From contig CAKTPP010000004.1 in NCBI GenBank assembly GCA_934591895.1, positions 81,582 through 145,581 of the forward strand: a stretch of 64,000 nucleotides of DNA, in the 5' to 3' direction. This DNA comes from an uncultured Oscillospiraceae bacterium. Its GTDB lineage: Bacteria; Bacillota; Clostridia; Oscillospirales; Oscillospiraceae. Below the pieces are notes generated by a model. The model saw only the letters and a program-made list of their open reading frames with translations. It did not search any database and was not told the DNA's origin. The position numbers and the translations under genes were made by a program. Within the stretch, counting starts at the first letter, position 1. Every line of letters begins with the position of its first letter. Below are positions 326 through 59,042 of this stretch, one piece after another.

Positions 326-351
326 CCCCGCTGCTTCGGCAGCGGGGTTTT
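326..351 (+). terminator. intrinsic terminator
   Basis: Stem CCCCGCTGC, loop ttcg, stem GCAGCGGGG, followed by TTTT. Confidence 0.7.
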
Positions 352-354
352 GTG

Positions 355-542
355 ACAGTCAAAAAAGTATTACTTTTTTGACAAAGGGGTTTGCGGCCTG
401 ACTGCATCGCACGCGCCGTCCGCCGTTGGCGGACGGCGCGCACGTTTGCAGGCCGAGCGGTATTTTCTTCGCCGCACATGTCGCCGAAGAAAATAATTGG
501 GTCTTTTTGCGCCTGCGGGCGCAAACTCTACGAGGTTTTGTG
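355..542 (+). repeat. hairpin-rich intergenic repeat, copy A (full length)
   Basis: Contains four hairpins: GTCAAAAAAGTAtTACTTTTTTGAC (358-382), a 13-bp GC stem (412-440), TTTTCTTCG..CGAAGAAAA (463-493) and TTTGCGCC..GGCGCAAA (506-525). Aligns end to end with the reverse complement of 32938-33128. Confidence 0.75.
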
Positions 543-585
543 CCGTTATGGGGCTTTGTGATGCTTGAACCATACCGCAGGGCGC

Positions 586-4511: not shown

Positions 4512-7500
4512 GCATCTCGCCTCCTTTCAGGCTGCTCCAGATCTTGTCGGCGGGGAGCTTTGTCAGCACGCGGTGGCAGTCGCCGTCCGCGCCGGGCGTA
4601 AAGTGGCAGACGCTCAGATAGTCGCAGTGCGTGCAGGCGGTGTCCTGCCCGGAGCGGAAATAGGGATCCGCCGTGATGCTGCCGCCGCGCAGCTCATGCG
4701 CCAGATCGAGCAGCGTCGTCTCAATGTGCCGTGCAAGCAGACCGAGCTGCTCCGCGCTGGCAAGGGCGTCCGCCCTGCGCCGGGACGAGAGGGGCAGGTA
4801 CTGCGGCGTGTCACTGTGCTCCATCGCGTGCAGCACGGCGTCGTCGTCGAGCAGCAGACCGGAGCGGCGCACGGCGCCGGCGCGCTCTCTGGCCGCCTCC
4901 TCCGGCGAGAGCCGGCGGTCGGCCGGGATGAGCACATCGCGCGCCGGGACATAGAGCACGCCGGCCGGCACGATCTCATGGCCGTAGCGCTCCTGCCCCG
5001 AGCGCTCGAGCGCGAACAGGTACAGCAGCATCTGCAGCCCCATGCCGTACCACACGTCCGAGAGCGAGAACGCCTTGCGTCCGGTCTTGTAGTCGACCAC
5101 GCGCAGGTAGAGCTTGCCGTCGTGCAGCCAGCCGTCCACGCGGTCGGCCACGCCGCTCATGTTGAGCGTCACCTCGCCGTCCGAGAGCGTGATCGGCGCG
5201 ATCTGCTCGGGGTCGGCGAAGTTGAGCTCGAAATCGAGCGGCACGAAATCGCCCGCGCGCAGCTCGTGCGCCATGTCGGCCACCACCTGCCGCACCTGCC
5301 TGCACAGGCGGCGGAAGAGGTAGACGAAGCGTGCGGATTTTTCCTGAAAATCGTTGAGCTCGTCGTGGATGTAGCGCTGCGTCCAATGGTCGGTGAAGCG
5401 CCCGAGCTCCTCGTCGGTCACGACGGCGAAGCCGCCGGCGGCCGTCGCGTCCTGCGCCGTGTGCTGCAGGACATAGTGGAAGAACGTGCCGATCTCCGGC
5501 GGGCTGAACGCCGCCGGGCGGCGGGGCTTGGCCTTGAGCCCGTATTGCAGGAAATAGGCATAGCGGCAGGCACTGAAGCGCTCGGCCTTCGACGCCGAGA
5601 GGTACAGCCGCTGGCCGTAGAGCGCGCGCACGCGCTCGGGCGAGAGCCGGCCGCGTGCGGTGTGCGCCGCGCGTGTGAGCGCCGCGAGCGCAGCGGGGTC
5701 GTGCTGCCGGAACCATGCGCGCGCAGCGGCAGCTCTGGCGTCCGTCGCGCCGCGCAGCGTGCGCGCGGCCAGCTCCAGCGCCGGTGCGGGGGCGAGCAGC
5801 CGCTGCGCATCGGGGTCGACGGGCTGCGGCAGCGTACCGAACAGCTGCCCGATGCGCGTGACGAGGAACGCCGCGCGCGTGGGCGTGCCGCTGCCGTCAA
5901 AGAGCGGGTAGGTCACCGTGAGCGTCTCGGACGGGAGCGTCACGCACTGGTAGACAAGGTTGTATTCGCGCCAGAGCGCGTCGTCCGTGCCGCCGCCGAT
6001 GTCGAGCTCCAGCTCCAGCAGCTCGCGCCGTTCCTCGGGCGAGAACACGCCGTCCGGCTCGCCGGCGCGCGGCAGCCGGTCGTCCGACGCGCCGAGCACG
6101 ATCAGGTGCCGGATGCCGCGCCGGCGCATCCGGTCAAGGTCGCCGGCGGTCACGCGGTCGAGCGCGACGGGGATCGTGCCGATGTCGTAGCACGAGAGCA
6201 TACGCAAAAACAGCGTCGCAAACGTGTCGGCGTCCATCTGTGTGTCGCCGAGGATGGCGGCAAACTGCTCGAGCGCGCCGACCGTCAGCTCCCAGAGCTG
6301 CGCATATTCGGCCGCGAGCGCGCCGCGCCCATCACGGCGCAGATCCTCGGCGAGCGTGTCGAGCCGCTGCGCCAGATGCAGCCGCTCGAGAAAATCCGCC
6401 AGCGCCATGGCCTGCGCCTGTGCGGTGGCGGCGGCGTGGCTCTGCGCGCTGAGCCGCCGCAGCGGGTCTGCTGCCCGCTGCCGCAGATCATTGATCCCCG
6501 CAAGGCGGGCGGCGGCCTCGTCCGTGTCCGGTGCGCCGTAGCCGTCGGGGTGCTGCCGCCACGGCTCGGGGCGCGTCCATGCTCCGCCGCGCAGCGACCA
6601 GAGCAGGACATAGTTTTCGAGCGTGTCCGTCTCCTCGGGCGTGAGCCCGGCGAGCCCCGTGCGCAGGTAGGCCGAGACGTCCTCGGCGTCCCAGCCGCCG
6701 GTCACGATGTCGTAGGCGGAGCGGATGAGCGCCACGAGCGGCTTTTGCAGCAGGTCGGTGCGGCGGGCAAAATAGAGCGGCACGCCGTAGTAGGCACACA
6801 TACGCTCGAGCGCGGGCGCGTAGTCGGAAAAGCCGCGCGCGGCGATGGCGATGTCGCGCCAGCGGCAGCCGGACTGCACGAGCTGAAGTGCGTGCGCCGC
6901 TGCCCACGCGCACTCGGCCGTGAGATCGTCCGCCGTGCGCACGCTGATCGTGTGCGCAGGGTCGTCAAAGTGCGCGGAGGTGTAGGAAAACAGCTGCTGC
7001 TCGAGCACGCGCAGCGGCGTGTCGGCGGCACGGGCGGGGCAGGCCTCGGCGGTGCCGGGCACGCCGCAGTCGTCCGCCATGTCCAGCAGCACGCGCGCCG
7101 TGTGCCGCGCCGTGCCGAAGATCTCGTTGCCGTCCGTGAGCGCGTCGAGCGTGAGGCAGACCGTCACATCCGCGCCCGCCGTCAGCAGCGCGCGCACGAC
7201 GGCCAGCTCCTGCCGCGTGTAGTCGGTGAAGCCGTCGAGATAAAACTGCCCCGTGCGTCCGAGTGTGCTCCCGGGGATGCGCTCGGCCAGCCGCGTCAGG
7301 CGGTCGGTGGGGTCTGCGTGCCCCTGCGCGGTCACGGCGTCATACGCTGCGAGCACGAGCGCGAGATCGCGCAGCTTGTCGCCCAGATAGCCGGGGCAGC
7401 GCGCGGCGGTCTGCTCGAGCGCATCGGGCGTGACGCACGCGGTCTTGAGCTCGTCGACCGCGCCGAGCAGCGTCTGCTGCATCTGCGCCCGGCGGGCAGC

Positions 7501-10330: not shown

Positions 10331-11605
10331 TTACTTCGCCCCCTTTGTAATCATGGTGATGATCTCGTCCTCGGTGTAGTAGCGCGCGGTCGTGTACGTG
10401 CGCAGCTTGTTCGACGAGGTGATGACGGGCATGGCCTTGCTGAGCGGGTTGTTCATGTACATGAGCGGGCAGATGTAGCTGAGCACGACGCCGGTGCTGC
10501 GCAGGCGGGCGGCATACTGCGTCTTTTCAAACTCCTCGATGACGGCGGGCGCGGCGGTGAACACCGTCGGGATGCAGACCTTGCTCTGCCCGTGTGCCCG
10601 CAGACCCGCCTCGACGCGTTCGGTCGTGTCGATGAGCTGCTGCAGCGTCATGTGCGGGCAGCCCATGAAGCACAGCTTCGGCCTGGCGTTGAGGTTTTTC
10701 CACACGCACGGGTAGCTCTCGCGCACGCGCCGCAGCTCCGCATCGTCGATGACGTACACCGGTGCGCCGTCGCGGATGAGCGCCTCGCCCTGCTGCACGG
10801 CCTCGGGCGTGAGGTGCTCGATGTGGTACAGGCCGACGGCGCCGTTGGACGCGGTGGCCGCGCCGAAGTCCTTGAGATAGGTGATGGCTTCGTCGTTGAT
10901 CTCCGTGCCGAGCCACTGGTCAAGCCCCTTGATATACGGCACTTTTTCCATGACCTTCATGCCGATGGCGGAGCCGAGCAGCTGCGGCTCGGGCTTTTTC
11001 GTCGTGCGCACCTCAACGATCCAGTCGGCGCGGCGGCCGTCGTCGGTCAGAAAGCCGAAGTACGGCACGCAGCCCGCGATCGAGCCCATGAGCTCGATCA
11101 TGCCGGAGTTGCGGTTGCAGCGCGCGCCGAGCACGCTGTTGGCGTAGACCACGGCGGACGATTCCGCCCACGAGAGCACCTCGCCCTGCTTGGGCTTGTT
11201 GCCCACCTCGTCGAGGTAGCAGGTGCAGGTGTAGTCCTTGTCGCTGAGGATGCCGAGTCTGCGCAGCTGCTGCTCGTAGCGCGCCTGCTGCTTGTACATG
11301 AACTTGCGGAACACCAGATCCTGTAGCGGATTCGAGGGGACGTTTTTATCGAGCGGGAGCGGGTCTGCGGTGAACTTCTGGGCGCTGAACGCGCCGGCTT
11401 CGATGAGCTGATCGTACAGGTCGTAGACCGGCTTCATGGCGTTGATGCCGAAGCTGATGACCGTGTGGCCGTAGGTGCTCGTGATGGGCACCATTTTTTC
11501 CGCGCCGAAGGCATCGCCGTACATGACGAGCGTTTTCATGACCTTGGCCATGACGGCGCCCTTGCTGCCGTCGAGCACGGCCTGCTGTTCGGGTGTCAGT
11601 TGCAT
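10331..11605 (-). CDS. aconitase X catalytic subunit (DUF521)
   Basis: 424 aa. The N-terminal LTPEQQAVLDGSKGAVMAKVMKTLVMYGDAFGAEKMVPI is characteristic of DUF521/AcnX large subunits. GGAGG RBS. Confidence 0.75.
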   Translation of the reverse strand: MQLTPEQQAVLDGSKGAVMAKVMKTLVMYGDAFGAEKMVPITSTYGHTVISFGINAMKPVYDLYDQLIEAGAFSAQKFTADPLPLDKNVPSNPLQDLVFRKFMYKQQARYEQQLRRLGILSDKDYTCTCYLDEVGNKPKQGEVLSWAESSAVVYANSVLGARCNRNSGMIELMGSIAGCVPYFGFLTDDGRRADWIVEVRTTKKPEPQLLGSAIGMKVMEKVPYIKGLDQWLGTEINDEAITYLKDFGAATASNGAVGLYHIEHLTPEAVQQGEALIRDGAPVYVIDDAELRRVRESYPCVWKNLNARPKLCFMGCPHMTLQQLIDTTERVEAGLRAHGQSKVCIPTVFTAAPAVIEEFEKTQYAARLRSTGVVLSYICPLMYMNNPLSKAMPVITSSNKLRTYTTARYYTEDEIITMITKGAK

Positions 11606-11781
11606 GAGATCGACCTCCTTATGAACTCACTTGCTGTGAATTTCTTAACAGAAATTATAGACCCATTCGGGCAAAAGCGCAAGGGGATATCGGGACAAGT
11701 ATGCAAAGCGGCGCAAAAAATCCCCGCCAGCACCCTGCCGCTTAGCGGGTTCTGCACGAGGGGAAATACGCGAAAAAGCGC

Positions 11782-11810
11782 TTGACGAAAGAACCAAAAG
11801 TTGTCATACT
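11782..11810 (+). promoter_or_regulatory. sigma-70-type promoter candidate for the orphan gene
   Basis: TTGACG (11782-11787), 17-nt spacer, CATACT (11805-11810). Confidence 0.45.
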
Positions 11811-11870
11811 GAAATTGGCGCGATTTTTACACTGCCTGTTGAGAAAATATATCACAACGGAGGTACGGAT

Positions 11871-13028
11871 ATGAATGAACTTATCAATAAGGACCATTTC
11901 CTGCAAATGATGGCCACGACAGAGGTCGCGCCGGCGGCGCTTAAAACCGAATTGAATGTGCAGTCATATGGGAAGCTGCCTCTGTCGCAGCTGGCTGCCT
12001 TGGGGGTTGGATTTGAGCCGGTCGTGTCGGCAATCCAGCAGATCACAAATCATGGACAGGCGGTGAGCGGCTACTATAAGGTGACAATTCCAGAGGGAAC
12101 ACATCTCGCAAGTTTTCGAGATGGGAGCGGCTTTTTAGGAACCGCTCTGGGTGACGTGACAAACAGCTTCGACGCACAAGCTCGCCTGAATCCGCTGATT
12201 TGCAATCCGACGCTGCTGTTTGCTGCAGCCACACTTATGAGTATGGAGCGGAAGCTGGATGCAATACAGGAGACGCAGCGAGAAATGATGGATTTCTTGC
12301 TGCAAAAAGAAATTTCCAAGCAAAAAGGAGATTTGGATTTTTTGTCGGATGTGCTTGCGAACTACAGGTTCAACTGGAACAACGATAAGTTTAAGACGGC
12401 AAATCACAGTCAGGTGTTAGCAATCCGGCGCGAAGCAGGGCAGCAGGTGGACTTTTTCCGAGAGCAAGTAAAAAAGAACTTTCTGAAAGGTGGATTTCTG
12501 CCCGCGGCTCGGGATGTGCAAAAGCAACTGGATGAACTGACGAGGGCGTTTCAGAGTTACCAGTTGGCTCTATATCTGTATGGGTATGCATATTTTCTGG
12601 AGATTTTGCTGCAGGAAAGCTTTGATTCCGAGTATTTGAATGCCGCAGCCGCCAAGCTGGAGCAGATGTCTCTTGCGTACCGCGAATTATACACAGAGGC
12701 TTATGAATGCATAGAGAAACGCACAAAATCGTCTCCTGAAGCATATATGCTTCGCGGCGTATCGTCTGCAAGTAAGGTGTTTGGCGAAACGATTGCCAAG
12801 CTGCCGGTTATCAGCCGGACACAAGTGGACGAATCACTTATCGGCGCCGGTCAGAAGATTGGGGACTACGAGAAAAAGCGTGCTGCCGAGAAGATGCGGC
12901 AGCTTGTGGAGCATCAGAACAGCTGTGTTCATCCGTTCATTGATCAGCTGCAATCCATGAACAGGATTTATCACGGCGAACTTACTCTGATCTTCAATGA
13001 CGAGACGCTCTATTTAGGAACGGCCTGA
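11871..13028 (+). CDS. orphan hypothetical protein, 385 aa, compositionally foreign
   Basis: Long ORF with a GGAGG RBS 8 nt upstream. Visibly A/T-rich third codon positions, unlike all neighbours. No recognisable catalytic motif or family. Predicted mostly helical after residue 130. Confidence 0.8.
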   Translation: MNELINKDHFLQMMATTEVAPAALKTELNVQSYGKLPLSQLAALGVGFEPVVSAIQQITNHGQAVSGYYKVTIPEGTHLASFRDGSGFLGTALGDVTNSFDAQARLNPLICNPTLLFAAATLMSMERKLDAIQETQREMMDFLLQKEISKQKGDLDFLSDVLANYRFNWNNDKFKTANHSQVLAIRREAGQQVDFFREQVKKNFLKGGFLPAARDVQKQLDELTRAFQSYQLALYLYGYAYFLEILLQESFDSEYLNAAAAKLEQMSLAYRELYTEAYECIEKRTKSSPEAYMLRGVSSASKVFGETIAKLPVISRTQVDESLIGAGQKIGDYEKKRAAEKMRQLVEHQNSCVHPFIDQLQSMNRIYHGELTLIFNDETLYLGTA

Positions 13029-13070
13029 AAAAAGCGGATGATTCCGTAAACCGGAATCATCCGCTTTTTG
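13028..13070. terminator. bidirectional intrinsic terminator
   Basis: AAAAAA, then AGCGGATGATTCCG, loop taaa, then CGGAATCATCCGCT, then TTTT. Lies between the convergent orphan gene and the DMT transporter. Confidence 0.8.
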
Positions 13071-20988: not shown

Positions 20989-21044
20989 ACATGAGATAAA
21001 AAAGCAGCCCCGAACCGTGTCGGTTCGGGGCTGTCAGCTTGTCA

Positions 21045-21128
21045 GAAACCTTATAGAGCTTGCGCCCGCAGACGCAAAGAAAGTCCGGTCGTTTTCTCAG
21101 GCGGCCTGTGCGGCTGAGAAAATGCTTC
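21045..21128 (-). repeat. diverged, truncated copy F of the intergenic repeat
   Basis: Aligns with the copy C core: AGAGcTTGCGcccgcagaCGCAAAGAAAGTCC..TTTTCTCAGgcggcctgtgcggCTGAGAAAA. Ends at the stop codon of the ACT-domain gene. Confidence 0.5.
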
Positions 21129-21673: not shown

Positions 21674-22114
21674 ATGCGATGGTTTTTGGGCGGATTTCTC
21701 GCGTGCATCCTCGCCGGAGCGGCGATGAGCATTCAGGGCGTGATGAACACGCGCCTCGGCGAGCACATCGGCACGCTGAAGGCCAACGCCTTCGTGCAGT
21801 GCACGGCGGCGGTGCTGTCGCTGCTCGTGCTGCTGTTCTGGCACACGGGCAGCTTTGCCGCGCTGAGCGCCGCGCCGAAATACAGCTGGTTCGGCGGCGT
21901 GCTGGCGCTGGCCATCACGGTCACGGTCATGCTCGGCATGGGCAGGCTCGGCCCGACGCTTGCCGTGGCGGTGATCCTCATCGCGCAGCTTTCTGCGGCC
22001 GCGGCCATCGACGCCTTCGGCATCATGGGCACGGAAAAGCTCGCCTTCGGCTGGGGCAAGTGGGCGGGGCTCGCGCTCATGACGGGCGGGATGCTGCTGT
22101 TCAAGATGAAATGA
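21674..22114 (+). CDS. DMT-family membrane protein (YdcZ/DUF606-like)
   Basis: Start at the ATG at 21674 (MRWFLGGFLACILAGAAMSIQGVMN...). About 146 aa with five TM helices, the typical DUF606 pattern. Confidence 0.7.
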   Translation: MRWFLGGFLACILAGAAMSIQGVMNTRLGEHIGTLKANAFVQCTAAVLSLLVLLFWHTGSFAALSAAPKYSWFGGVLALAITVTVMLGMGRLGPTLAVAVILIAQLSAAAAIDAFGIMGTEKLAFGWGKWAGLALMTGGMLLFKMK

Positions 22115-22123
22115 GGCGGCGAG

Positions 22124-22316
22124 ATGGGCCAACGAGACCCACTGCGTTGGGCTCTCGTTGGAAGAGCTGCGGCTCGCTGCAGCGCACGCGCCGAGCGCGC
22201 ACGTTTGCGAGCCGAGCGGTATTTTCTCCGCCGCACATGTCGCCGGAGAAAATGATTGGAATTTCTTTGCGCCTGCGGGCGCAAACTCTGCGAGGCTTTT
22301 TACAGACCAAACAGAT
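22124..22316 (+). repeat. intergenic repeat copy B
   Basis: The core GAGCCGAGCGGTATTTTCTCCGCCGCACATGTCGCCGGAGAAAATGATTGG...TTTGCGCCtgcgGGCGCAAACTCTGCGAGG matches copy A. The left end differs and carries the hairpin CCAACGAGA..TCTCGTTGG. Confidence 0.7.
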
Positions 22317-22363
22317 CAAAATGAGGCGGCGAGCCATGCTCGCCGCCTCATGTTTCGGTTTTC

Positions 22364-22567
22364 TTACAGGCCGATGCTTGCCAGCAGGTCTGCGATGCCG
22401 GTGGATTTGATGAACGTGAAGATCGCACCGATGTCGTAGTGCTCATACGCCGCGTCCCAGATACGGTCGGGGCTGCCGCCGGTCGCAAGACCGACGCCGA
22501 GCACGATCTCGCCGACGATCAGGATGCACAGCGCGATGATGAGAATGGTTTTCCATGCTTTTTTCAT
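22364..22567 (-). CDS. small membrane protein, 67 aa
   Basis: Start at the ATG at 22567 (MKKAWKTILIIALCILIVGEIVLG...) with an AAGGAG RBS. Overlaps the upstream gene stop by 4 nt. Confidence 0.6.
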   Translation of the reverse strand: MKKAWKTILIIALCILIVGEIVLGVGLATGGSPDRIWDAAYEHYDIGAIFTFIKSTGIADLLASIGL

Positions 22568-23505
22568 GCGGCGATCTCCTTTCTGCACCAGCGCTGACCC
22601 AGCCGCACCAGCAGCCTGACCCAGCCGATGACCAGGCGGATGAACAGCCAGACGGCCAGCCACACCACCACAAGCGCGATGGCGAGCACGGCGGCGCCGC
22701 CGCCGAGCAGGATGAGCATATCCGCCACCATGGGCAGACCGATGAACGCGGTCATGATCAGACCGACACCGGCCGCGCCGCACGCAGCGCCGATGGCCAG
22801 CACGGCCAGATCCAGCACCAGCAGCACGGCAAACACCGGCACGCCGACGATGATCGCGCCGAGCGTGTACAGGATCGCCAGAAAGACGTTCGTCTTGTAT
22901 TCCGGCTCGTAGTCGTCGTAGTATTCGTCGTATTCCTCGCCGGATTGTTCGTCATAGTAGCCGTCGTCTTCAGCGGGCTGCTCGTCATAGTAGCCGTCGT
23001 CTTCAGCGGGCTGCTCGTCGTAGCGGCCGTCGTCTTCGGCGGGCTGCTCGTCATAGTAGCCGTCGTCTTCAGCGGGCTGCTCGTCATAGTAGCCGTCGTC
23101 CTCGGCGGGCTGCTCGTCGAACGAGAGCTGACCGTCGAGCACGGGCGCTGCGTCCGTTTCGGGCTCGTCAGGATCCTCCGGCAGCTCCGGGAACGTGAAC
23201 GACGGCGCGGGCTTGCGCGCTGCGGCCGCGGTCATCGGGCGGTACTGCTCGGCGCGCGGACGCGGCTGGGGTGTACGCTTGGGCTGCGCCTGCGCGGGTG
23301 CGACCACGGGCGCGGCGGCCGGCGTGATCTTGCCGCTGTCGGCATACCGGATGAGGGCAACGGCGACTTTGGTCGGGTTGCCGATCTCCTGAATGAGGCG
23401 CTCCTCATCGGGCGCATTGTCAAACATATTCTCCATCTGCGCGATGAGCGCCTGACGTGTCTGTTCGTCGGTGATCAGGCCGAGCAGGCTGCTGATCTCC
23501 GCCAT
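22564..23505 (-). CDS. membrane protein with a DUF1700/HAAS-like N-terminus, an acidic tandem repeat linker and a C-terminal TM bundle
   Basis: 313 aa. The N-terminal helical segment resembles DUF1700. It carries five DEQPAEDDGYY repeats followed by about four TM helices. The RBS for the ATG at 23505 is poor, so the start is uncertain. Confidence 0.6.
   Translation of the reverse strand: MAEISSLLGLITDEQTRQALIAQMENMFDNAPDEERLIQEIGNPTKVAVALIRYADSGKITPAAAPVVAPAQAQPKRTPQPRPRAEQYRPMTAAAARKPAPSFTFPELPEDPDEPETDAAPVLDGQLSFDEQPAEDDGYYDEQPAEDDGYYDEQPAEDDGRYDEQPAEDDGYYDEQPAEDDGYYDEQSGEEYDEYYDDYEPEYKTNVFLAILYTLGAIIVGVPVFAVLLVLDLAVLAIGAACGAAGVGLIMTAFIGLPMVADMLILLGGGAAVLAIALVVVWLAVWLFIRLVIGWVRLLVRLGQRWCRKEIAA
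22948..23119 (-). repeat. 33-bp in-frame tandem repeat, about 5.2 units
   Basis: The unit CTCGTCATAGTAGCCGTCGTCTTCAGCGGGCTG repeats head to tail with 1-3 substitutions. It encodes (Y)DEQPAEDDGYY on the minus strand. Confidence 0.85.
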
Positions 23506-23717
23506 GTAACTCTGTCTGTTGATAGATGGTCACCTCCAAGGGGTTCGATTGCACATTGTATGGCATTCTAATTTACATATTATATTGCACGAATCAGGCG
23601 CGGTCAAGACCGAAATGCACTTTTCGCCCGCGCACCGGCTCTTGACAGGCGGTCTGCGGCGGGGTATCCTGTGAAAAAAGAGCCGGTTTGTCACCTGACC
23701 GGCAGGGAGGAACGCGT

Positions 23718-38801: not shown

Positions 38802-40343
38802 ATGTCGTTACCAATAGCACTCGGTTGTATCATCGCAGCGCTTGTGGTTGGTTGTATCCTTGGCGGGCTCTACCGCAAAAAGGTCTCGGAACGCGAGATC
38901 GGCAGTGCGGAGGAGAAGGCCAGGCAGATCATAAATGACGCCTATAAGAGTGCCGAGAGCAAGCGGCGCGAGACCCTGCTCGAGGCCAAGGAAGAGATCC
39001 ACAAGAGCCGTTCGGAGTATGAGCGCGAGGTCAAGGAGCGCCGCGCGGAGCTGCAAAAGCAGGAGCGCCGCCTTCAGCAGAAGGAGGAGACGCTTGACCG
39101 CAAGACGGACACGCTCGACAAAAAGACCGATGCCCTCAACCAGAAGATCGCCGCGATCGACACCAAGCAGAACGAGATCAACCAGCTCAAGAAGACCCAG
39201 ATGGAGCTGCTCGAAAAGATCTCCGGCTACACGGTCGAGGAGGCCAAGGCCTTCCTCATCAACAGCCTGAAGGACGACGTGGTGCACGAGCAGGCGCTCA
39301 TGGTCAAGGAGATCGAGACCCAGTACAAGGATGAGGCCGATACCCGCGCCCGCGAGATCATCGCCACCGCCATCCAGCGCTGTGCCGCCGATCATGCCAG
39401 CGAGGTGACCGTGTCGGTCGTGCCGCTGCCGAACGACGAGATGAAGGGCCGCATCATCGGCCGCGAGGGCCGCAACATCCGCGCCATCGAGACGCTCACC
39501 GGCTGCGACCTCATCATTGACGACACGCCCGAGGCCATCACGCTCTCGAGCTTCGATCCCGTGCGGCGTGAGGTCGCGCGCATCGCGCTCGAAAAGCTCA
39601 TTCAGGACGGACGCATCCACCCCGCCCGCATCGAGGAAATGGTCGCCAAGGCTCAGAAGGAGGTCAACGCCACCATCAAGGCCGAGGGCGAGCGCGCCGT
39701 TTTCGAGACGAACATCCACGGTCTGCATCCCGAGCTGATCAAGCTGCTCGGCCGCATGAAGTACCGCACCAGCTACGGCCAGAATGTGCTCAACCACTCC
39801 ATCGAGGTTTCGCACATTGCCGGCCTGCTCGCTTCCGAGCTCGGCGTCGACGTGGCCACCGCCAAGCGCGCCGGCCTCCTGCACGACATCGGCAAGGCCA
39901 TCGACCACGAGGTCGAGGGCAGCCATGTGACCATCGGCGTGAACATCGCCCGCAAGTACAAGGAGTCTGAGGAGGTCATCCACGCCATCGAGGCGCACCA
40001 CAACGATGTGGAGCCGCACACCGTCGTCGCCTGCCTGGTTCAGGCGGCCGACGCCATCTCCGCCGCCCGCCCCGGCGCACGGCGCGAGAACATCGAAAAC
40101 TATGTCAAGCGTCTGGAAAAGCTCGAGGAGGTCTCCAAGAGCTTCCCCGGCATTGCTAACAGCTTTGCCATTCAGGCCGGCCGCGAGATCCGCATCATGG
40201 TCAAGCCCGAGGAGGTCTCGGAGGATCAGATGGTGCTGCTTGCGCGCGACATCGCCAAGAAGATCGAGGACGAGCTGACCTATCCCGGTCAGATCAAGGT
40301 CAATCTCCTGCGCGAGACCAAGGCCGTCGATTACGCGAAGTAA
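38802..40343 (+). CDS. rny: ribonuclease Y
   Basis: 513 aa. N-terminal TM anchor, coiled coil, KH domain ([15 protein letters not shown]) and HD domain (LLHDIGKA). Confidence 0.95.
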
Positions 40344-40361
40344 ACCACAGCACAAACGCCA

Positions 40362-40391
40362 AAACGCCCGCCGGGAAACCGGCGGGCGTTT
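40362..40391. terminator. intrinsic terminator behind rny (left copy of a duplicated 30-mer)
   Basis: AAACGCCCGCCGGgaaaCCGGCGGGCGTTT, flanked by an A-run and a T-run. Confidence 0.8.
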
Positions 40392-40592
40392 TGGCATATC
40401 CAAAAGTCTCGCAGTGTTTCGCCGATGGCGCGGCGAAAGAAAATGAAATCATTTTTTCCGGCGACATGTGCGGCGGAAAAAATACCGCTCAGGCTGCAAG
40501 TGTGGAATTTGTGCGCCGTCGGCGCACAAATTATGCGCGCAGCAGACCGTGAGCCTTTTGTCGGAAAACTTTTTGGGTTTTCCGACAGGCTC
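40392..40592 (-). repeat. intergenic repeat copy D
   Basis: Same module order as copies C and E: TTTCGCCG..CGGCGAAA, TTTTTTCCG..CGGAAAAAA, AATTTGTGCGCC..GGCGCACAAATT and the terminal hairpin GTCGGAAAAC..GTTTTCCGAC. Confidence 0.7.
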
Positions 40593-40622
40593 AAACGCCC
40601 GCCGGGAAACCGGCGGGCGTTT
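40593..40622. terminator. second, identical copy of the 30-nt terminator hairpin
   Basis: Identical 30-mer to 40362-40391, as read from the sequence. Lies 10 nt from the stop of the minus-strand gene at 40632. Confidence 0.7.
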
Positions 40623-40631
40623 GCTGTCTGT

Positions 40632-41243
40632 TCAGAGGTAGGTTTGCGGCGCTTTTTCGACGTATGTTCCGCAGTTGGTGCAATATGTGCACCCTTCGGA
40701 GAGCGAAGAGCCGCAGTTTCGGCAAAAGCGGGGGCGCTGCGTGTAAGCAGGGGCTGCGGGAGCCGGACTCTCGACAGGAGACCTGTCCGGGACTACGGTG
40801 TACTCCGCGTCGAGCTGTATGGGCGGTGCGTTTTTCGGCAGGGGAGAGAACAGCAGCCGCCGCTTCATGAAGTATATCCAGCTCGGGACGGCGACGATGC
40901 CGCAGCCGATGATCTGGCCGATGGTGGTTGCAGCGGACGGGTATGTCAGCCGGTAGGTGTAAATGATCACAAGAGCCGCGATCGAGTCGAGGATGATCAG
41001 ACCCCATGTCCCGAACAGCGCCAGCACACCGTACCACTTCATGGAGTTCAGGCCGGCGGCGGCTGCAATGGTGAGCAGCAGGCCGGCTGCGGCATAGACA
41101 AGCGTATATGCATTGGAGCCGGAGCGGAACAGCTGCGCACCCTGCACGAAGCGCGCAATGACCCCCAAGATAAGTACAATGCGCAGAAAATGATAATATT
41201 TCAGGGGCGTCTGCTCCTTGTTGACGTATTGGGGGGTGATCAT
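40632..41243 (-). CDS. membrane protein with a C-terminal zinc-ribbon
   Basis: Start at the ATG at 41243 (MITPQYVNKEQ...) with a GGAGA RBS. Four TM helices are followed by CRNCGSSLSEGCTYCTNCG. Confidence 0.6.
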   Translation of the reverse strand: MITPQYVNKEQTPLKYYHFLRIVLILGVIARFVQGAQLFRSGSNAYTLVYAAAGLLLTIAAAAGLNSMKWYGVLALFGTWGLIILDSIAALVIIYTYRLTYPSAATTIGQIIGCGIVAVPSWIYFMKRRLLFSPLPKNAPPIQLDAEYTVVPDRSPVESPAPAAPAYTQRPRFCRNCGSSLSEGCTYCTNCGTYVEKAPQTYL

Positions 41244-51511: not shown

Positions 51512-51552
51512 TTTGATAGTTTCTCCCTCCTCATATTCTCCTCTCTATTGAA

Positions 51553-51786
51553 CGAACCCCAGGCGGCTTGCCGTCTGGGGTTTGTTCTATATCCGGTCAG
51601 GAAACGCGGCGCAAGCGTGGGATGACAGAGCAGCGGGGGAGCCCGAGGGGGCAAGACCCGCCTCGGTTTCCATGGCACGCGCTTGCGCAGCAAGCCGACG
51701 AACCCCAGGCGGCTTGCCGTCTGGGGTTTGTTCTATATCCGATCAGGAAACGCGGTGCGAGCGTGGGATGACAGAGCAGCGGGGGG
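51553..51786 (+). repeat. direct duplication of an ~87-bp terminator-containing unit, period 146 bp
   Basis: Units at 51553-51639 and 51699-51786 differ at about 4 positions. Each starts with the hairpin ACCCCAGgcggcttgccgtCTGGGGT. Confidence 0.8.
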
Positions 51787-51788
51787 GC

Positions 51789-58736: not shown

Positions 58737-58826
58737 CTTGCGGGCGCGCGCCGCGCAGCCGGGATGGACTGCGCTGCACCTCCGGTCGGGCGGAAGGGTG
58801 AGAAAATCTCCGGTGTCCGGAACGCC

Positions 58827-58960
58827 GGAAAAGCCTCGCAGAGTTTCGCCGCCGGAGCGGCGAAAGGAAATTTGACCATTTTCTTCGGCGACATGTGCGT
58901 CGAAGAAAATACTTCTCAGGCTGCAAGTGTGGAATTTGGGCGCGGAGGGGGCGTCTGCGT
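58827..58960 (-). repeat. intergenic repeat copy E (truncated at the distal end)
   Basis: Near-identical to the first ~110 nt of copies C and D (GCAGAGTTTCGCCGCCGGAGCGGCGAAAG...TTTTCTTCGGCGACATGTGCGTCGAAGAAAATACTTCTCAGGCTGCAAGTGTGGAATTT). It lacks the two distal hairpins. Confidence 0.65.
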
Positions 58961-59011
58961 ACCTCCGGTCGAGCGGAAGGGCGAGAAAATCTCCGGTGTC
59001 CGTAACGTCAG

Positions 59012-59042
59012 AAAACCCCGCGCCGGATGGCGCGGGGTTTTG
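59012..59042. terminator. bidirectional intrinsic terminator
   Basis: AAAA, then CCCCGCGCC, loop ggat, GGCGCGGGG, then TTTT. Confidence 0.75.

Follow-up and report, generated by a model that had tools for sequence, protein, structure and literature searches.

Target-site duplications are normally short and fixed in length, a signature of transposase geometry. IS1272/TnSha1, from the IS1182 insertion sequence (IS) family in staphylococci, use hairpin-forming inverted repeats as target sites, among which are many confirmed terminators, with no sequence specificity, and a single hairpin can receive insertions more than once and in either orientation, for which a cruciform target has been proposed (PMC4923244 and PMC5678879). 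In IS1272 insertions, the stem-loop is replaced or lost in part and no target duplication results (PMC4923244); this autonomous IS measures 1.9 kb, encodes a 548-aa DDE transposase and has 16-bp inverted repeats. An outcome in which the entire stem-loop is duplicated had been drawn only as a hypothetical route, pathway b of a model for structure-dependent transposition (Wan et al. 2017; PMC5678879, Fig. 13). Here, we analysed a 64,000-nt stretch of DNA from an uncultured Oscillospiraceae bacterium (GenBank assembly GCA_934591895.1, contig CAKTPP010000004.1, positions 81,582 to 145,581 of the forward strand; hereafter, the window), in which a ~200-nt element downstream of the RNase Y gene rny, designated copy D, lies between two identical copies of the rny terminator stem-loop. 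[quoted passage not shown]

Several other systems act on palindromes or leave long footprints. [quoted passage not shown] Class C group II introns, ribozymes of at least 700 nt that depend on reverse transcription, home just past intrinsic-terminator stem-loops and make no target duplication. The ISs that target repetitive extragenic palindromes (REP) and bacterial interspersed mosaic elements (BIME) recognise one conserved repeat sequence and make a short duplication or none, and classical bacterial MITEs make duplications of 2-9 bp. The analogy between Cas1-Cas2 acquisition and transposition has been discussed (PMC8390005), and extragenic REP/BIME palindromes downstream of genes are described as safe-haven targets of IS1397, ISKpn1 and the IS110-family ISPpu9/ISPpu10 (PMC1525189 and PMC12288879). 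Classical bacterial MITEs (Correia, RUP, BOX and ERIC) are short, intergenic and multi-copy, lack an open reading frame (ORF), end in inverted repeats, fold stably and are co-transcribed with neighbouring genes (PMC10969869). The IS1202 subgroup, whose members are autonomous and ~1.5 kb long, has target duplications fixed at 27-28 bp (10.1101/2022.12.17.520857).

Duplicated terminator at the rny locus

The rny terminator is a 30-nt palindrome, AAACGCCCGCCGGGAAACCGGCGGGCGTTT, with a GC-rich 13-bp stem and a GAAA loop. It occurred exactly twice in the window, both times on the + strand and with 0 mismatches (Table 1), against an expected count of 0.00 in 100 dinucleotide-preserving shuffles. The left copy starts 18 nt past the rny stop codon, and the right copy ends 9 nt short of the stop of the convergent gene, whose C-terminus matches Zn_Ribbon_1 (E 3e-5, 24 bits, just below the Pfam cut-off of 25). 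Between them lies copy D, which starts with TGGCATATCCAAAAG, a degenerate 5' inverted repeat, and ends with GTTTTCCGACAGGCTC; the spacer thus reads ...CAAAACGCC..GCGTTT, then the insert TGGCATATCC...GACAGGCTC, then AAACGCC..GCGTTT GCTGTC. A simple scan of 40250-40750 found the right copy as the sole terminator-like site on the + strand. The perfect 30-bp hairpin duplication around the element, reported in the first-pass annotation from the letters of the window, was confirmed to the nucleotide, with 201 nt between the exact copies. RNase Y carries the Pfam domains RNase_Y_N, KH_1 and HD, and the identical protein was encoded in 10 contigs; the same 288-nt spacer was present in ten independent metagenome assemblies coding this protein, which rules out an assembly artefact.

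Relatives of RNase Y were found by protein search, and their contigs were then compared at rny. In a sister lineage with a 98% identical RNase Y (locus L103), the element was absent and the sequence read ...CACAAACA, AAACGCCCGCCGGATATCCGGCGGGCGTTT, GCTGTG..., with a single terminator. Its spacer between rny and the convergent gene measured 55 nt, versus 288 nt in the window, and the flanking genes were identical in kind. Comparison with this empty allele sets the insert at 201 nt and shows that the segment duplicated was the 30-nt palindrome in full. The element therefore inserted into the single bidirectional intrinsic terminator of rny and the convergent zinc-ribbon gene, as the first-pass annotation had supposed when it proposed a search for an empty rny site with one terminator copy in relatives. 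Further filled and empty alleles were found at other loci. The 31-33-nt stem-loop duplicated in one pair (L025/L071) was present once in the empty allele, and another pair was found (L056/L048); in a third, the second hairpin copy was no longer there (L072/L042). For copy F of the window, relatives (L077/L086) carried one terminator with its T-tract and lacked the element.

The rny terminator acts as an insertion hotspot for elements of different kinds. At the position equivalent to window 40362-40622 in other strains of the sister lineage with 98%-identical RNase Y (L104:3055-3835 and L105), we observed a different insertion of ~750 nt within the terminator loop, arranged as AAAACGCCCGCCGGGAA, then TGGCCGGTGTTCGTAAGG ... 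CTTACGAACGCCCTGCG, then AAACCGGCGGGCGTTTG. This insert has inverted repeats (GTTCGTAAG/CTTACGAAC) and an interrupted ORF that by eye is a candidate DUF559-type endonuclease-like gene, and the zinc-ribbon gene is absent from the locus.

A dispersed family of MITE-like elements

Scanning one genome per species with a pattern built on the helix-2 motif of the element (see below) returned 89 loci, nearly all from Oscillospiraceae or Clostridiales. The loop of helix 2 was part of the pattern, and retrieval accordingly favours one young subfamily. Most of the source genomes were metagenome-assembled genomes (MAGs), one of which, ERR1600716-bin.16, was 94-95% identical to the window. A profile search of the retrieved loci gave 108 unique copies with flanks.

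The consensus was ~201 nt long; conservation began sharply at CAGCTTGTCAAAAA and stopped at TTTTTGACAGnCTC(A). The terminal inverted repeats are imperfect, 11 of 14 positions matching between CAGCTTGTCAAAAA and the reverse complement of the 3' end, GAGACTGTCAAAAA. In 36 clean cases, the insert was mostly 193-204 nt long (mode 200) and its ends were constant. ORFs of 53-87 aa are listed across 40392-40592, a span that is filled by four compensatorily kept helices, and the family is short and without coding capacity.

An abutting direct flank repeat scoring above the 99th percentile of mismatched-flank controls was carried by 60 of the 86 full-length copies, with a median score of 17.5 versus 7 in mismatched left/right pairs; the catalogue of flank duplications across copies suggested by the first-pass annotation therefore came out in favour of its proposal. 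The repeats usually started a few nucleotides from the element ends. They were all different among copies, and each was a GC-rich stem-loop of the terminator type. Primary sequence thus does not define the target of the family; its copies occupy GC-rich terminator palindromes, with the whole stem-loop on both sides. It is MITE-like in being short and dispersed in many copies with inverted-repeat ends, abutting target duplications and presence/absence polymorphism, a classification that rests on the imperfect terminal inverted repeats, the lack of an ORF and the compensatorily kept helices.

In one locus (L052), the order hairpin-element-hairpin ran on into the initial 60 nt of another, different element, indicating that a hairpin copy can be re-targeted. 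Such re-targeting also accounts for cases in which a flank repeat continues into 5' sequence resembling the element, as in copy E of the window and in locus L090 of Vescimonas fastidiosa. As read from the sequence, each inverted repeat also holds an outward TTGACA (e.g., window 33120-33131 and the reverse strand of 32935-32950), a potential -35 box that could contribute to hybrid promoters or to a junction promoter of a circular intermediate.

Geometry and context of the duplications

The geometry was evaluated in a clean set of 38 non-redundant duplications, in which the palindrome was measured by its Watson-Crick span. Local helix tracing had served as an intermediate hairpin measure, and an alternative based on the enclosing pair farthest out in an RNA fold that included 40-nt flanks caught long-range pairs and gave a meaningless negative correlation. 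The clean duplications were 25-38 nt long (median 32), and perfect ones of 25, 28, 29, 30, 31, 32, 33, 35, 36 and 38 nt were seen. Their centre lay at most 1 nt off the palindrome dyad in 28 of the 38, and in well-defined palindromes both ends were mostly 0-3 nt from the stem base. Duplication length rose with the span of the palindrome (Pearson 0.52, p 8e-4; Spearman 0.61, p 5e-5). Since the duplications are terminator palindromes, centred on the dyad and correlated in length with the palindrome, the hairpin-targeted, staggered insertion suggested in the first-pass annotation stands. That annotation had left the choice between a staggered and a replication-linked mechanism; the staggered part held, and the replication-linked part gained no specific support, the element termini being defined and bearing inverted repeats.

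An upstream A-run accompanied only the left hairpin copy and a T-run only the right one, so that the left hairpin is followed by CAGCTTGTC instead of a U-tract. A rough gene caller put 54 of 58 copies at the 3' end of one or more genes; 23 lay between convergent genes, 11 were co-oriented and 20 anti-oriented in tandem contexts, and 4 lay between divergent genes. No orientation bias relative to the flanking genes was detected by this caller (11 vs 20 in tandem contexts), which fits a symmetrical DNA target rather than recognition at the transcript level. On the same ground, co-transcription was rejected as the basis of targeting.

Internal RNA-like structure

The element folds into four helices (Table 1), and the RNA fold of 40355-40630 had a free energy of -160.6 kcal/mol (z -12.4). 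Pairing was scored formally for helices 2 and 3 only, in 61 copies of <90% identity, because indels in the MAFFT alignment shift helix 1 and the terminal hairpin out of register and RNAalifold recovered neither. In helices 2 and 3 together, 96.3% of cells were paired and 17 of 28 pairs had changed on both sides; none of 500 shuffles reached these values, and slid controls fell to 33-56% pairing. Helix 2 alone had 99% of cells paired and two-sided changes in 6 of its 13 pairs, and the invariance of its loop among the retrieved loci is partly ascertainment. For helix 1 and the terminal hairpin, comparison of copies showed that pairing was preserved despite changes in both arms: the helix 1 position reads GCGCCCGCAGGCGC or CCGTCGTC..GACGACGG in other copies, and the terminal hairpin reads GTCAAAAAG..CTTTTTGAC in most.

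A tandem U-G/G-U in helix 3 was conserved in 56-57 of the 61 copies (alignment A6, columns 142-143 / 173-174; in copy D, the region of window 40502-40503 / 40533-40534). The opposite strand would read A-C mismatches at these positions, an argument for the structure being read as RNA, from the + strand of the element. No Rfam 15 family matched anywhere in the window at gathering thresholds, and an E-value scan of 40300-40700 gave nothing credible, the best match being a terminator-driven one to P15 (24.6 bits vs a gathering threshold of 70).

Subfamilies and a less biased sample

As a sample reached by BLAST instead of the helix-2 pattern, we used 290 kb of the complete V. fastidiosa chromid. 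Many of its copies lacked the 5' inverted repeat and the left hairpin and retained the right hairpin. Copies without the 5' inverted repeat (L090:23185-23423, L113 and L114) start with AAAAGCCTCGCAGAG, have an AT-rich, -10-like sequence upstream and are each followed by an unrelated terminator of their own; one V. fastidiosa copy has a full TTGACA-17 nt-TACTAT promoter-like sequence upstream. Judged by these signals, they may be independently transcribed small RNAs (sRNAs).

A variant subfamily, which includes copy B of the window (Table 1), keeps helices 1-3 and has a different, covarying 3' hairpin (CCAACGAGAGCCC..GGGTCTCGTTGG or GTTTGGCAAACC..GTTTGCCAAAC, loop AGCGAAGCG). No clear flank duplication was found in this subfamily. 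In 5 of ~10 cases, its members lie ~25 nt upstream of a ribosome-binding site (RBS) and start codon, with a conserved GAAAGGAG and then ATG, a position expected of a 5' leader. Taken together, the V. fastidiosa and variant copies indicate that the clean twin-hairpin signature characterises a young, inverted-repeat-bearing subfamily and that older copies are eroded; an RNA-level role for the element core cannot be dismissed.

Divergent RNA-like core copies were also noticed in two short human faecal virome contigs labelled 'Bacteriophage sp.', MT838551.1 (L091:2060-2290) and MT838656.1 (L092:2248-2460). These copies have no inverted repeats, and each ends with its own terminator.

Search for a transposase

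A direct-repeat scan of all loci for hairpin duplications spaced >290 nt apart gave nothing IS-like, and an all-against-all megablast of the loci for internally bounded repeats of 0.5-4 kb gave syntenic matches only. Phage and plasmid collections searched by BLAST with the consensus returned only more small copies. No transposase was listed in the annotation of the 290 kb of V. fastidiosa chromid, and this genome looks IS-poor. MAGs often lack IS copies. In the window, the only atypical gene was a 385-aa ORF in a low-GC island at 11600-13050 (GC 0.47-0.50 vs 0.64 for the window). It showed no transposase domain, no NCBIfam match and only a sub-threshold Pfam match; it is probably a recently acquired gene. 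A promoter-like sequence and a terminator of its own were noted beside it.

Other features of the window

The five other copies in the window are listed in Table 1. The orthologue of copy A in a sister genome (L017) still has both 29-nt hairpin copies. At copy F, the junction consists of the hairpin and TCAGCTTGTCAGAAACC..., followed by 84 element nucleotides joined to the next stop codon. Copy B has a partial flank repeat, CTCGCCGCCTCATTT, at 22319-22333 and 22109-22123, and copy C has one, TTCCGGTGyCCGTCTGTTTTTT, at 32872-32893 and 33133-33154, the left one lying ~40 nt away from the element. A 58-nt direct repeat (58778-58835 and 58961-59018, 90% identical) flanks copy E and extends into element-like 5' sequence; from the likeness of this copy to L052 we infer a nested or successive insertion.

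Another duplicated terminator was noticed at 51552-51788, which holds 1.6 copies of a 146-nt unit, seen as 91-nt direct repeats of 96% identity with 55 nt between them. The unit opens with a terminator hairpin, ACGAACCCCAGGCGGCTTGCCGTCTGGGGTTTGT, just past a gene end, and no member of the 200-nt family lies between the repeat copies. Two unrelated repeats were also seen: six head-to-tail 33-nt units (TCGTCATAGTAGCCGTCGTCTTCAGCGGGCTGC) at 22883-23146, which encode an 11-residue protein repeat within the ORF 22564-23529 on the - strand, and a 113-nt hairpin-containing unit (CCCGTACCGCTTGCGGTACGGG) in ~2.5 tandem repeats at a locus edge (L083:1-279).

Table 1. Positions of the rny twin-hairpin locus, of the other element copies and of further features; coordinates refer to the window unless a locus is named.
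Feature	Position	Strand	Remarks
rny (RNase Y), whose terminator was hit by the insertion	38802..40343	+	513-aa ORF
Left terminator stem-loop copy (left target-site duplication)	40362..40391	.	exact 30-nt match to 40593-40622
Copy D, ~200-nt MITE-like element	40392..40592	+	201 nt; nhmmer match, model positions 2-198, E 2e-53
Helix 1 (TTTCGCCG...CGGCGAAA)	40417..40438	+	minimum-free-energy fold
Helix 2 (ATTTTTTCCG GCGACATGTGCGG CGGAAAAAAT)	40451..40483	+	13 pairs; best-conserved part of the element
Helix 3, long (CTCAGGCTGC...GCAGCAGACCGTGAG)	40488..40553	+	15 pairs, 11 with two-sided changes; tip variable
Terminal hairpin (GTCGGAAAAC..GTTTTCCGAC)	40560..40586	+	3' arm is the 3' inverted repeat
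Right terminator stem-loop copy (right target-site duplication)	40593..40622	.	original downstream context retained
Convergent 203-aa gene, C-terminal zinc ribbon	40632..41243	-	terminator in common with rny; gene called in L093-L103
Copy A, element	355-544	-	profile search
Copy A, intact terminator copy CACAAAACCCCGCTGCCGAAGCAGCGGGG	326-354	-	overall 326..562; decayed left copy 545-562
Copy F, element 5' 89 nt adjoining terminator hairpin	21034..21122	+	3' part and right hairpin copy deleted
Copy B, variant with different 3' hairpin	~22129-22305	-	overall 22109..22333; flank score 15
Copy C, element	32935-33131	+	overall 32872..33154; flank score 19
Copy E, element, 3'-truncated	58829-58945	+	overall 58778..59018; repeat family D12, profile search
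Variant subfamily members	window 22129-22305; L025:3423-3578; L037:2780-2931, 5742-5895	- (window copy)	
Further variant subfamily members	L024:3033-3184; L048:2329-2501; L028:4981-5138		
385-aa ORF, low-GC island	11871-13028	+	GC content at third codon positions 0.55 vs ~0.87 elsewhere

Discussion

In the mechanism that we favour for copy D, a transposase supplied in trans would recognise the structure of the palindrome, be it a hairpin or an extruded cruciform, and would join the two 3' ends of the element at the two feet of the stem, which would be near in space and 25-38 nt apart along the duplex. Gap repair would then copy the stem-loop, giving a duplication of approximately the hairpin length, and the left hairpin copy would usually lose its T-tract, with the right copy retaining it. 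Each hairpin copy would stay a target, tandem arrays could accumulate, and later deletions could erode one hairpin copy or one element end.

Several results weigh against this mechanism. The slope of duplication length on hairpin span was <1, hairpins of 23-24 nt giving duplications of 29-31 nt and palindromes of 38-39 nt giving 33-37 nt, and with such overshoot and undershoot a cut exactly at the stem foot is not proven. Only 4-5 of 13 full-length copies in the V. fastidiosa sample had a hairpin duplication. The internal helices are compensatorily maintained, conserved G-U pairs included, and a plain DNA transposon model predicts no such maintenance. No autonomous partner or transposase was found in the 89 loci, the window or the 290 kb of V. 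fastidiosa chromid, and the enzyme and its chemistry are therefore things that we infer only.

The slope of <1 also speaks for the main rival, a ruler-type transposase with a near-fixed stagger of ~32 ± 4 bp on ordinary duplex, centred on terminator palindromes and leaving the stem feet uncut. It would overshoot short stems and undershoot long ones, as observed, and it fits the narrow, dyad-centred band of lengths; long fixed duplications of 27-28 bp do exist in the IS1202 subgroup (10.1101/2022.12.17.520857). However, the perfect duplications here extend from 25 to 38 nt, a far wider range than 27-28, duplication length is significantly correlated with palindrome span and, for the majority of well-defined palindromes, the distance from the stem base is 0-3 nt at both ends. 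The words palindrome, hairpin, terminator and secondary structure are absent from the main text of the IS1202 preprint (10.1101/2022.12.17.520857). We regard a ruler as unlikely. Another rival is an RNA-centred element, in which the four-helix RNA would function as an sRNA, a leader or an RNA for its own mobility, spread would be RNA-dependent or copies would be retained for the RNA function, and the hairpins would serve as a 5' protective stem and a 3' terminator. The pairing statistics (96.3% of cells, 17 of 28 two-sided pairs, 0 of 500 shuffles comparable), the one-strand conservation of the tandem U-G/G-U and the fold z of -12.4 speak for such an element, as do the variant copies that lack inverted repeats and in 5 of ~10 cases lie ~25 nt upstream of an RBS and ATG, and the V. 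fastidiosa copies with a sigma-70-like promoter directly upstream and a terminator directly downstream. Without an orientation preference, though, read-through would be antisense as often as sense, and the element has inverted-repeat termini, a constant insert length, no poly(A) tail and no Rfam family match, and no reverse transcriptase was seen in the annotated V. fastidiosa stretches (290 kb), which makes this account quite improbable.

Seen alone, the 231-nt direct duplication of the hairpin at rny could be slippage, and a local event without a mobile element (tandem duplication, recombination, assembly error, or a site-specific recombinase with the 30-mer as attachment (att) core) would then suffice. 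Such an event is barely conceivable here: the insert belongs to a dispersed family of >100 copies, a different hairpin brackets each copy and hence no common att core exists, and the identical structure in 10 independent assemblies stands beside an empty allele. On the differing flank repeats, the 10 assemblies and the empty allele, local events and site-specific att integration were rejected as refuted. A non-autonomous element inserted by a structure-directed transposase thus remains our preferred explanation for copy D. That the family is a mobile structured-RNA gene and not a decayed IS, with the four-helix RNA as payload or mobility cofactor, is a further idea that we hold rather unlikely.

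Among described systems, the family resembles the IS1182 family in targeting unrelated GC-rich palindromes without primary-sequence specificity. It differs from IS1272 in being 200 nt long without an ORF and in duplicating the whole stem-loop (25-38 nt) where IS1272 deletes it without duplication, and no related transposase was found. Because IS1182 family duplications reportedly range from 0 to 60 bp overall in ISfinder, stem-loop duplication does not exclude membership in that family. Pathway b, a drawn alternative that PMC5678879 ties to no observed IS1272 insertion, would correspond to what is the regular outcome here. Unlike in the IS1202 subgroup, duplication length varies and follows the palindrome. 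CRISPR arrays have one fixed repeat beside a leader, cas genes and variable inserts, whereas the family has constant inserts at many unrelated hairpins. The hairpins are unrelated in sequence and duplicated whole, unlike the targets of REP/BIME-targeting ISs. Like classical bacterial MITEs, the elements are short, ORF-less, inverted-repeat-ended, intergenic, multi-copy and stably folding; unlike those MITEs, with their sequence-defined targets, they sit on unrelated hairpins. A class C group II intron was rejected, given no credible Rfam intron match and the presence of a duplication. No described MITE with a terminator duplication was found in the literature searched, the coverage of which was incomplete. 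Terminator-hairpin targeting is already known; a regular family footprint in which the entire stem-loop is duplicated, with a length following the hairpin, was not found in that literature.

A duplicated whole regulatory structure whose length follows that structure is the footprint expected from cruciform or hairpin recognition. The >100 natural insertions and several empty alleles provide a data set for structure-directed transposition, which has so far rested on the target-destroying insertions of IS1272. If the family were a mobile structured-RNA gene, terminator duplication would be an evolved strategy that supplies each new copy with a ready-made 3' terminator and a 5' hairpin at insertion sites that are harmless to the host and already transcribed, and the enzyme would recognise the shape of DNA (a cruciform) and could lie outside the described IS families. 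An integrase that reads shape and leaves genes intact by inserting behind them would also be attractive for safe-harbour insertion. For annotators, twin terminators in Oscillospiraceae genomes are likely a marker of these insertions. In the host, the elements double the terminators behind housekeeping genes such as rny and can shift transcript ends; they add ~200 nt of highly structured RNA to 3' untranslated regions, and the direct repeats left by insertion allow precise loss of the element.

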